Positions 37,944 through 40,339 of a stretch of 40,339 bases of DNA are shown here, piece by piece. A program made the translations under genes and the position numbers. The stretch comes from Escherichia coli. Its GTDB lineage: Bacteria; Pseudomonadota; Gammaproteobacteria; Enterobacterales; Enterobacteriaceae. The notes under the pieces are model-generated. The model was not told where the DNA came from and did not search any database. It saw only the letters and a list, made by a program, of their open reading frames with translations. The stretch lies in assembly GCF_003334815.1 (NCBI RefSeq), contig NZ_QOWO01000034.1. One strand, given 5' to 3'. Position 1 is the stretch's first letter, and every line of letters begins with the position of its first letter.

Positions 37944-40013
37944 ATGTCTGAGAAAACTTTTCTGGTGGAAATCGGCACTGAAGAGCTGCCACCAAAAGCA
38001 CTGCGCAGCCTGGCTGAGTCCTTTGCTGCGAACTTTACTGCGGAGCTGGATAACGCTGGCCTCGCACACGGCACCGTTCAATGGTTTGCTGCTCCGCGTC
38101 GTCTGGCGCTGAAAGTAGCTAACCTGGCGGAAGCGCAACCGGATCGTGAAATCGAAAAACGCGGCCCGGCGATTGCCCAGGCGTTCGACGCTGAAGGCAA
38201 ACCGAGCAAAGCGGCAGAAGGTTGGGCGCGTGGTTGCGGTATTACCGTTGACCAGGCTGAGCGTCTGACTACCGATAAAGGCGAATGGCTGCTGTATCGC
38301 GCCCATGTGAAGGGCGAAAGCACCGAAGCACTGCTGCCGAATATGGTTGCGACTTCTCTGGCGAAACTGCCGATCCCGAAACTGATGCGTTGGGGCGCAA
38401 GCGACGTGCACTTCGTGCGTCCGGTGCACACCGTGACCCTGCTGCTGGGCGACAAAGTCATTCCGGCAACCATTCTGGGCATTCAGTCCGATCGCGTGAT
38501 TCGCGGCCACCGCTTTATGGGCGAGCCGGAATTCACCATCGATAACGCCGATCAGTATCCGGAAATTCTGCGTGAGCGTGGGAAAGTCATCGCCGATTAC
38601 GAAGAACGTAAGGCGAAGATTAAAGCCGATGCCGAAGAAGCAGCGCGTAAGATTGGCGGTAACGCTGACTTAAGCGAAAGCCTGCTGGAAGAAGTGGCTT
38701 CGCTGGTGGAGTGGCCGGTCGTTCTGACCGCAAAATTCGAAGAGAAATTCCTCGCGGTGCCGGCTGAAGCGCTGGTTTACACCATGAAAGGTGACCAGAA
38801 ATACTTCCCGGTGTATGCGAACGACGGCAAACTGCTGCCGAACTTTATCTTCGTTGCCAACATCGAATCGAAAGATCCGCAGCAGATTATCTCCGGTAAC
38901 GAGAAAGTCGTTCGTCCGCGTCTGGCGGATGCCGAGTTCTTCTTCAACACCGACCGTAAAAAACGTCTTGAAGATAACCTGCCGCGCCTGCAAACCGTGT
39001 TGTTCCAGCAACAGTTGGGGACGCTGCGCGACAAAACTGACCGCATCCAGGCGCTGGCTGGCTGGATTGCTGAACAGATTGGCGCTGACGTTAACCACGC
39101 TACCCGTGCGGGTCTGCTGTCTAAGTGCGACCTGATGACCAACATGGTCTTCGAGTTCACCGACACCCAGGGCGTTATGGGGATGCACTATGCGCGTCAC
39201 GATGGCGAAGCGGAAGATGTCGCGGTGGCGCTGAATGAGCAGTATCAGCCGCGTTTTGCTGGTGATGACCTGCCGTCCAACCCAGTAGCTTGTGCGCTGG
39301 CGATTGCTGACAAGATGGATACCCTGGCGGGTATCTTCGGTATCGGTCAGCATCCGAAAGGCGACAAAGACCCGTTTGCGCTGCGTCGTGCCGCGCTTGG
39401 CGTGCTGCGAATTATCGTTGAGAAGAACCTCAACCTTGATCTGCAAACGCTGACCGAAGAAGCGGTGCGTCTGTATGGCGATAAGCTGACTAATGCCAAC
39501 GTAGTTGATGATATTATCGACTTTATGCTCGGTCGCTTCCGCGCCTGGTATCAGGACGAAGGTTATACCGTTGACACCATCCAGGCGGTACTGGCGCGTC
39601 GTCCGACTCGTCCGGCTGATTTCGATGCCCGTATGAAAGCGGTATCGCATTTCCGTACCCTGGATGCAGCTGCTGCACTGGCGGCGGCGAACAAACGTGT
39701 ATCTAACATTCTGGCGAAATCTGACGAAGTGCTGAGCGACCGCGTGAATGCCTCTACCCTGAAAGAGCCGGAAGAAATTAAACTGGCGATGCAGGTTGTG
39801 GTGCTACGTGACAAGCTGGAGCCGTACTTTACGGAAGGTCGTTACCAGGATGCGCTGGTCGAACTGGCTGAGCTGCGTGAACCGGTTGATGCTTTCTTCG
39901 ATAAAGTGATGGTCATGGTTGATGACAAAGAATTGCGTATCAACCGTCTGACCATGCTGGAGAAACTGCGCGAACTGTTCCTGCGCGTTGCGGATATTTC
40001 GCTGTTGCAATAA
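37944..40013 (+). CDS. glyS: Glycyl-tRNA synthetase beta subunit, 689 aa
   Basis: [31 protein letters not shown]... It starts 9 nt after the glyQ stop. Confidence 0.95.
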
Positions 40014-40020
40014 TAACGCC

Positions 40021-40048
40021 GTTATTAAATAGCCTGCCATCTGGCAGG
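40021..40048 (+). terminator. Rho-independent terminator of glyQS: AGCCTGCC-atct-GGCAGGCT followed by TTTTTTT
   Basis: Perfect 8-bp stem, 4-nt loop, 7-T run. Confidence 0.85.
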
Positions 40049-40151
40049 CTTTTTTTATCGCTAAATAATACAGCAACCTTTAATAATCTTCTGCTGAATA
40101 AAGATTATCTCATATATTAATTTTATGAGATTTTTTTAGGATTATATCAAG

Positions 40152-40186
40152 GAGAAGAAACAAACTTATTAAGCTAGAATAGCCAC
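40152..40186 (+). promoter_or_regulatory. Candidate promoter of the hokA toxin mRNA (-10 TAGAAT at 40175-40180; predicted start near 40187)
   Basis: A -10 hexamer lies 6 nt before a G-run that aligns with the 5' end of plasmid R1 hok mRNA (GGCGCUUGAG...). The -35 hexamer is poor. Confidence 0.35.
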
Positions 40187-40265
40187 GGGTGCTTGAGACT
40201 GTTTGTCTCAGGTATTCACCGAAAGGCAGACAGAGAAAAGCCCCACCTGACTATAAATCAAAGTT
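40187..40265 (+). other. hokA: Truncated 5' leader (approximately 79 nt) of hokA (hok/gef type I toxin) mRNA, cut by the IS insertion at 40266
   Basis: GGGTGCTTGAGACTGTTTGTCTCAGG...GGCAGACAGAGAAAAGCCCCAC parallels the remembered R1 hok mRNA 5' end (GGCGCTTGAGGCTTTCTGCCTCATG...GGCAGAAAGAAGATAGCCCCGTAG), including the 5' stem-loop (40192-40212). No mok/hok ORF follows before the IS. Confidence 0.5.
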
Positions 40266-40339
40266 TGTACTGACCCCAAAAAGTTGGACAGTTAAACACG
40301 AGGCATATAGGTCTGATTCCGATATTCAATTGGAGTCAG
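40266..40339. mobile_element. Terminal inverted repeat and first approximately 74 bp of an IS3-family element (IS150-like); partial, continuing beyond the window
   Basis: It starts TGTACTGACCCCAAAAAGTTGGACAG..., matching the IS150 end as remembered and the IS3-family TG... terminus. In K-12 an IS150 copy lies next to glyS and interrupts the hokA locus. Confidence 0.65.

Follow-up and report, generated by a model that had tools for sequence, protein, structure and literature searches.

Genes and features at the end of the window

The stretch of DNA analysed here (the window; 40,339 nt of an Escherichia coli contig, NZ_QOWO01000034.1) ends, downstream of glyS, in some 190 bases that hold the promoter and the first 78–79 bases of the hokA mRNA, split from the toxin gene by the insertion sequence IS150. 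The features of this region are listed by window position and strand.

37944-40013 (+): glyS open reading frame; the stop codon ends at 40013
40031-40050 (+): intrinsic terminator of glyS, an 8-bp stem with 6 G-C pairs followed by a T run; upstream boundary of the hokA remnant
40175-40180 (+): putative hokA -10 hexamer TAGAAT in an AT-rich spacer; conserved in position, without a good -35
40187-40264 (+): first 78 nt of the hokA mRNA leader, assigned by Rfam match and identity to uninterrupted hokA
40187-40197 (+): tac element GGGTGCTTGAG, starting 6 nt after TAGAAT
40194-40210 (+): small 5' hairpin TGAGAC/GTCTCA, short and perfect, inside 40192-40212
40226-40244 (+): GGCAGACAGAGAAAAGCCCC block, read from the sequence
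40236-40244 (+): ucb/anti-SD block AAAAGCCCC, read from the sequence
40230-40264 (-): 3' 35 nt of sokA (3' arm of the terminator hairpin and U-tail), a pseudogene fragment, by mapping of b4614
40265 (no strand): lone T between the hokA homology and IS150; G in uninterrupted alleles, and in neither annotated feature
40266-40339 (-, the transposase strand): right end of IS150 (IRR, TGTACTGACCCCAAAAAGTTGG...); 74 nt of the element fall within the window
40309-40343 (T-rich end on the plus strand): 15-bp perfect hairpin inside the IS150 right end, then TTTAATTT; cut by the window end at 40339 (L001 2796-2830)

The reference annotation of E. coli K-12 MG1655 (NC_000913.3) supplies four further entries, three of which were mapped to the window scale.

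hokA: b4455, NC_000913.3 3720448-3720600; window scale 41741-41893
mokA pseudogene: b4647, NC_000913.3 3720448-3720632
IS150 (insJ/insK): NC_000913.3 3720633-3722075; window scale 40266-41708
sokA pseudogene: b4614, NC_000913.3 3722077-3722111; window 40230-40264, minus strand

A preliminary description of the window, made from its letters, had pointed to a -10-like TAGAAT and had placed the 5' hairpin within 40192-40212 and the start of the IS inverted repeat at 40266, and all of its coordinates proved correct to the base. A sigma-70 consensus promoter scan of the window called no hokA promoter, which was missed because its -35 region is poor; TAGAAT is proposed as the putative -10 hexamer by positional comparison with hokE and with the hok locus of R1-type plasmids, since the hexamers of hokA (TAGAAT), hokE (TAAGAT) and the R1-type locus (TATGAT) all lie exactly 6 nt before a conserved 5' G run. 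The predicted start at 40187 corresponds to MG1655 3,722,154 on the minus strand; a literature search for this coordinate (3722152-3722156) returned unrelated matches only. On the minus strand of the glyS terminator region, Rfam gave a sub-threshold match to STnc370 (40021-40088; 33.6 bits vs. 54), which is almost certainly not a gene, because it is driven by the terminator hairpin read in reverse.

The locus can be assigned by direct comparison with K-12 MG1655: window positions 39700-40339 are an exact reverse-complement substring of NC_000913.3 (3,722,002-3,722,641), and the last 326 nt are shared at 100% identity with many E. coli chromosomes, that of MG1655 among them. Across the last 2,826 nt, the sole difference from the MG1655-derived NZ_CP097882.1 is A instead of G at 39513, inside glyS. 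The far side of the element lies outside the window and was read from genomes identical to the window's final 640 nt; in MG1655 a 1,443-bp IS150 is followed 32 nt on by the start codon of hokA, which encodes 50 aa, and a Hok/Gef-family toxin reading frame is present beyond IS150 in the window-identical genomes. The identity to NC_000913.3 and its annotation also bear out the view, already taken in the preliminary description, that the promoter and about 80 nt of leader have been parted from the toxin frame, and they identify the separating element as IS150. We therefore read the end of the window, with a probability of about 95%, as the promoter-proximal stump of the dead, IS150-disrupted hokA/sokA locus of E. 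coli K-12-type strains. Compared with MG1655 hokA/sokA, this is the same locus with no sequence difference, and the annotated features coincide with parts of the window; the NC_000913.3 annotation has no entry for what remains of the promoter, tac and ucb, and it leaves base 3,722,076 (window 40265) unassigned. The gene that follows hokA is called cspE in several automatic annotations and cspA in NC_000913.3 (L001 4567-4779); cspA is the correct name, because the Rfam cspA thermoregulator matches here at about 500 bits (L001 4512-4939).

The hokA/sokA locus of K-12 was reportedly the subject of work by Pedersen and Gerdes that appeared in 1999 in Mol Microbiol 32:1090. PMC11551753 attributes the disruption of MG1655 sokA by IS150 to Pedersen & Gerdes (1999), and PMC7232551 reports from the same study that insertion elements, point mutations or rearrangement have left the five K-12 hok loci non-functional. 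With the 1999 literature and the reference genome annotation, the IS150 disruption of K-12 hokA/sokA is already known, a real but ordinary finding; the locus is indeed a snapshot of toxin-antitoxin inactivation by an IS, as first described, but not a new observation.

The hok leader and its uninterrupted counterparts

The preliminary description had drawn a parallel of about 79 nt between the window and the hok mRNA leader, and this parallel is real. The Rfam family RF01794, named "sok," is a 157-position model of the sense strand of the hok mRNA leader that begins at +1 and ends at the hok AUG. Its match to 40187-40326 on the plus strand reaches 70.1 bits, above the gathering score of 59 (E 1.1e-15), in an alignment that is confident for model positions 1 to about 85 only, the remainder being forced onto IS sequence. 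With this model, an uninterrupted hokA locus obtains 119.6 bits and the R1-type plasmid hok locus 87.2 bits. The Hok protein of this plasmid locus is 100% identical to the 52-aa sequence that we take to be R1 Hok. Stretch 40187-40264 aligns throughout with uninterrupted hokA loci; in some 2,800 complete E. coli genomes, the start of these loci is 98-100% identical to the 79-nt segment. The IS-free genomes match the window through 40264 and then continue into mokA/hokA, and IS150 copies on plasmids match the window from 40265/40266 on.

The RNA fold of the fragment is consistent with this assignment. In the minimum-free-energy structure (-26.7 kcal/mol), GGG.GCUU of tac pairs with AAGCCCC of ucb, the anti-SD box, and closes a long hairpin that is more stable than any of 200 shuffled sequences (z -3.88); the same tac/ucb stem has been described for the processed hok mRNA (PMC9841398). 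The pairwise alignment of the 79 nt with the R1-type leader is moderately significant (z = 4.2; one of 1000 shuffles scored higher) and draws mainly on the tac hairpin and the GGCAGA...AGCCCC block; taken alone, it would leave some room for a chance resemblance, in which an AT-rich spacer 3' of glyS mimics a hok leader. The probability of such mimicry is nevertheless negligible, given a covariance-model match above the curated threshold (E 1e-15), the continuation of the same sequence into mokA/hokA in about 2,800 genomes, and the agreement of the reference annotation with a hokA/sokA identity.

Uninterrupted alleles outline what the stump once belonged to. hokA is free of any IS in 2,813 of 5,426 complete E. 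coli genomes, about half. In the intact alleles of an O157-like locus (L002) and of B25FEP, which has a K-12-like hokA (L008), the leader continues past ...ATAAATCAAAGT as GAGGC(N8)ATG... GGTTAGCCTCTTACTCGTTGGAAATCAACACAGG(A/G)GGCTGGGAATG. The SD and start of mok (GAGG...ATG) span +83 to +92; the first ATG (+90) opens mokA, in frame with hokA (+150), and yields a 70-aa product (L002 1763-1975; L008 373-585), so that "Mok" in these alleles, where mokA and hokA share a frame, is HokA with a 20-aa N-terminal extension. Downstream of hokA, outside the window, the fbi element TTCTCATTGCACCCA pairs with tac (-18.4 kcal/mol) in intact and K-12 alleles alike. The antisense gene can be placed by homology to the annotated sokE (b4835, 60 nt), the antisense-strand promoter of which reads TTGCCT-17-TACCAT-7-start. 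By this comparison, the sokA promoter would consist of a -35 element TTGATT (hok mRNA +134 to +129) and a -10 element TAACCT (+111 to +106), and the predicted SokA RNA would extend from about +98 to +44, folding as a 5' tail and a terminator hairpin; the 3' end of sokA (+44) corresponds to the annotated 3' end of sokE (+45).

On this architecture, the intact locus would work as follows: a weak promoter (TAGAAT) would start the hok mRNA at GGGUGCUUGAG (tac), followed in the leader by the anti-SD box ucb (AGCCCC), by the ribosome-binding site and start of mokA (+90), and by hokA (+150); the 3' fbi would pair with tac and lock the full-length mRNA shut, and antisense SokA would block mok translation. 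The retained part shares this architecture with the paradigm of type I toxin-antitoxin systems, the hok/sok (parB) locus of plasmid R1 and of its IncF relatives. In R1, hok translation depends on mok translation; ucb masks the mok SD in the full-length, tac/fbi-locked mRNA until 3' processing exposes it, and Sok binds the exposed mok region and triggers decay by RNase III (PMC9841398). The window and R1 both have, 6 nt after a -10 hexamer, a 5' GG(C/G)GCUUGAG tac, together with the small 5' hairpin and the GGCAGA...AGCCCC stretch (ucb); further elements that R1 has in common with intact hokA are the SD and ATG of mok, the GGNTAGCCTCTTAC block, hok and fbi. In contrast to R1, the hokA leader is chromosomal and has about 20 nt fewer from the 5' hairpin to ucb, and the hokA of the window breaks off at +78/79, without mok, hok or Sok function. 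The intact chromosomal hokA of E. coli C reportedly does not mediate post-segregational killing (bioRxiv 10.1101/2025.08.07.668861).

The IS150 junctions and the recurrence of IS150 in hok leaders

The element belongs to IS150 by its terminal inverted repeats, which start with TGTACTG, and by its length of 1,443 bp in the identical genomes (about 1.44 kb expected), where it ends ...GGGTGCAGTACA; outside the window, the two overlapping transposase frames with a programmed frameshift that are typical of IS150 are present by annotation, as insJ/insK and as [quoted passage not shown] The K-12-type junctions read ...ATCAAAGTT/TGTACTGACCCC (IRR) ... (IRL) GGGTGCAGTACA/TACTCGTTGG..., with a slash at each boundary. 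The hokA homology ends at 40264; a T at 40265 replaces the G of other alleles, and the right inverted repeat TGTACTGACCCC follows from 40266. Relative to intact alleles, about 39 nt are absent (GAGGC...AGCCTCT, +79 to +117), and the 3-bp direct repeat characteristic of IS3-family insertions is missing: the element is flanked by aaagtt and tactcg (gtt vs. tac). Since other insertions in hokA and hokE show 3-bp duplications (AAG, CCC), the K-12 copy must have undergone additional rearrangement.

The missing piece held the SD (GAGG) and ATG of mokA as well as the Sok target; to judge from the homology with annotated sokE, it probably also held the -10 element, the start and the 5' half of sokA. 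Neither the window nor the far flank in the identical K-12 genomes contains the mok ribosome-binding site, its start or the Sok target, and because these fell within the 39-nt loss, the locus is a pseudogene remnant and not a functional family member. mokA survives only as a start-less fragment (b4647), and instead of a Sok gene with its own promoter, 35 nt of the sokA 3' end remain on the window side. The -35 element TTGATT would have been kept on the far side, and TAACCT and the 5' half would have been deleted; a promoter scan of the K-12 locus listed no sokA promoter, as expected where the -10 is gone. These results modify the preliminary description, which had located the mok/hok frame and the Sok target beyond the IS: hokA does lie there, 32 nt past IS150, but the mok start and the Sok target have been deleted, and what is left of sokA is found on the near side (40230-40264, minus strand). 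The homology to hok does resume beyond the element, as had been predicted, but 39 nt further on and without the expected 3-bp duplication.

The left junction occurs in 1,644 and the right junction, deletion included, in 1,663 of the 5,426 genomes; as these counts agree, insertion and deletion represent a single widespread allele. A simple IS150 insertion with a 3-bp duplication and intact mok/hok and Sok target beyond, from which precise excision could restore the locus, is thus refuted for K-12-type genomes and very improbable for the window. Such alleles do exist: in NR3838, IS150 has the K-12 orientation and is flanked by a clean AAG duplication, with nothing deleted, and 23AR0303 and VE-T9 carry it at the same AAG, likewise duplicated, in the opposite orientation. 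The window junction, however, is of the K-12 type (aaagtt/TGTACTGACC and not aaag/TGTACTGACC), and the right flank of window-identical genomes (tactcg) lacks both the duplication and the 39 nt with the SD and ATG of mokA. A single-step origin of the K-12 allele from the clean AAG insertions was also considered, and neither an adjacent deletion nor an IS-mediated inversion fits. The most economical account of the allele would be an insertion at GTG, a later deletion beside IRL, and a G-to-T change at 40265.

One genome, PO06021 (L006 380-420), has K-12-type flanks and K-12 glyS and hokA proteins but no IS150, and reads AAAGTTCGTTGG; either an imprecise loss of the IS together with 4 nt (TACT) or an assembly artefact or collapse could account for this sequence.

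Across the 5,426 complete genomes, a collection heavily biased towards laboratory and clinical lineages, about 52% of hokA alleles are intact, about 30% are K-12-type and about 17% carry IS150 in the opposite orientation, so that IS150-bearing alleles amount to about 48% in total. In MS 115-1, an oppositely oriented IS150 lies 2 nt further right and is itself interrupted by an ISEc15-family element. The IS150 sites homologous to window 40262-40266 fall at L004 2060/3502, L007 1939/3381, L012 2254/3696 and L003 1753. Decay has proceeded in some IS-bearing alleles: NR3838 has a mutated -10 (TGGAAT) and a mokA frameshift caused by a 1-nt deletion, and in VE-T9 hokA is frameshifted.

A comparable insertion is found in a paralog. 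The hokE locus of W60 (L011 359-1801; MG1655 equivalent L009 765-768) carries IS150 at ...ATCAACCC/.../CCCTGGGGC with a CCC duplication; its junction ATCAACCC/TGGGGC is homologous in position to the hokA site, just 5' of the mok SD-like TG(A/G)GGC and inside the SokE hairpin. This insertion matches the sokE::IS150 allele that, according to PMC11551753, is carried by XL1-Blue as well as by over 400 natural isolates of E. coli. The two loci share the element and the homologous place in the leader, in hokE the 3 nt directly 5' of the mok SD-like motif; in contrast to the window allele, IS150 has inserted cleanly in sokE::IS150, with CCC duplicated and nothing deleted, and in the opposite orientation (IRL towards the promoter). 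The IS186 at K-12 hokE is likewise an insertion element at a K-12 hok locus, but a different one and in a different place: IS186B starts 18 nt after the hokE stop in MG1655 (L009 1008; MG1655 608007), 3' of the toxin reading frame, where it removes the 3' fold-back (fbi) region and leaves the 5' leader untouched.

At least three independent IS150-hokA alleles fall within the same 3–5 nt (AAG in both orientations, MS 115-1, and the K-12 type); by another count, the AAG insertions and MS 115-1 make up at least three independent events in addition to the K-12 allele. Over hok-family leaders as a whole, IS150 has struck these few bases at least three or four times. Taken together with hokE, the hokA alleles tentatively suggest that IS150 strongly prefers the 3–5 nt just 5' of the mok SD, inside the Sok terminator hairpin and in either orientation, and that in nature it repeatedly disarms chromosomal hok/sok loci, a reading to which we give slightly less than even odds. 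Alternatively, the apparent hot spot could go back to a small number of old insertions that have spread through descent, in a region that tolerates or favours insertions. IS3-family elements can target sequences that resemble their inverted repeats, and such a target was considered as the cause of the hot spot: hokA +91 to +119 and IRR agree in 20 of 29 positions (z 3.2; empirical p 0.012 before correcting for 16 comparisons). The likeness to IRR was not reproduced at that place in hokA of B25FEP, in hokE or in R1-type hok, and this explanation was rejected as unsupported. Insertions of IS150 in hokB/sokB are said to have arisen in long-term evolution lines; a literature search on IS150 and hokB returned no match.

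Consequences for toxin, antitoxin and a possible stump RNA

In the K-12-type allele, IS150 lies after +78/79 with its right inverted repeat facing the promoter, leaving the hokA promoter, tac and ucb 1.44 kb away from the hokA reading frame, and fbi, hokA and a start-less mokA on the other side. As mokA has neither SD nor ATG, the translational coupling that hok needs is gone; sokA, in turn, would be left without its -10, its start and the 5' half that recognizes the target. Toxin and antitoxin are thus lost together, and the event is therefore tolerated.

TAGAAT may still be firing. If so, its product would be a non-coding chimeric RNA of 79 nt of hok leader and antisense IS150, which may stop at the hairpin at 40309-40343; the same hairpin may act as a barrier to read-through transcription entering IS150 from outside. 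It appears unlikely that the surviving promoter drives a stable structured RNA with a role of its own, either in antisense damping of the single K-12 IS150 or as an independent small RNA. Several observations would suit such an RNA: the -10 hexamer and start region are the same as in intact alleles, the 79-nt fragment is more stable than any shuffle (z -3.88), transcription from 40187 runs into the IS antisense to the transposase, the 15-bp hairpin with its T-rich tail follows about 120–155 nt downstream, and K-12 has a single IS150 copy (PMC3032704, Table 3). The stable fold, however, is merely the inherited tac/ucb structure, and recent common descent explains the sequence identity among K-12-type alleles; moreover, the mutated -10 (TGGAAT) of the IS-bearing NR3838 suggests that there is no selection to retain the promoter.

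For K-12, the reading as a disrupted hokA/sokA stump means that hokA has no native promoter, no coupling to mok and no SokA, and that the "intergenic" region after glyS holds an orphan promoter, possibly still active and aimed at IS150; this has little significance beyond correct annotation. The apparent IS150 hot spot in hok leaders is the only mildly novel thread, and the recurrent landing of IS150 on these leaders would be of modest interest for the target choice of the element and for the loss of chromosomal type I toxins.
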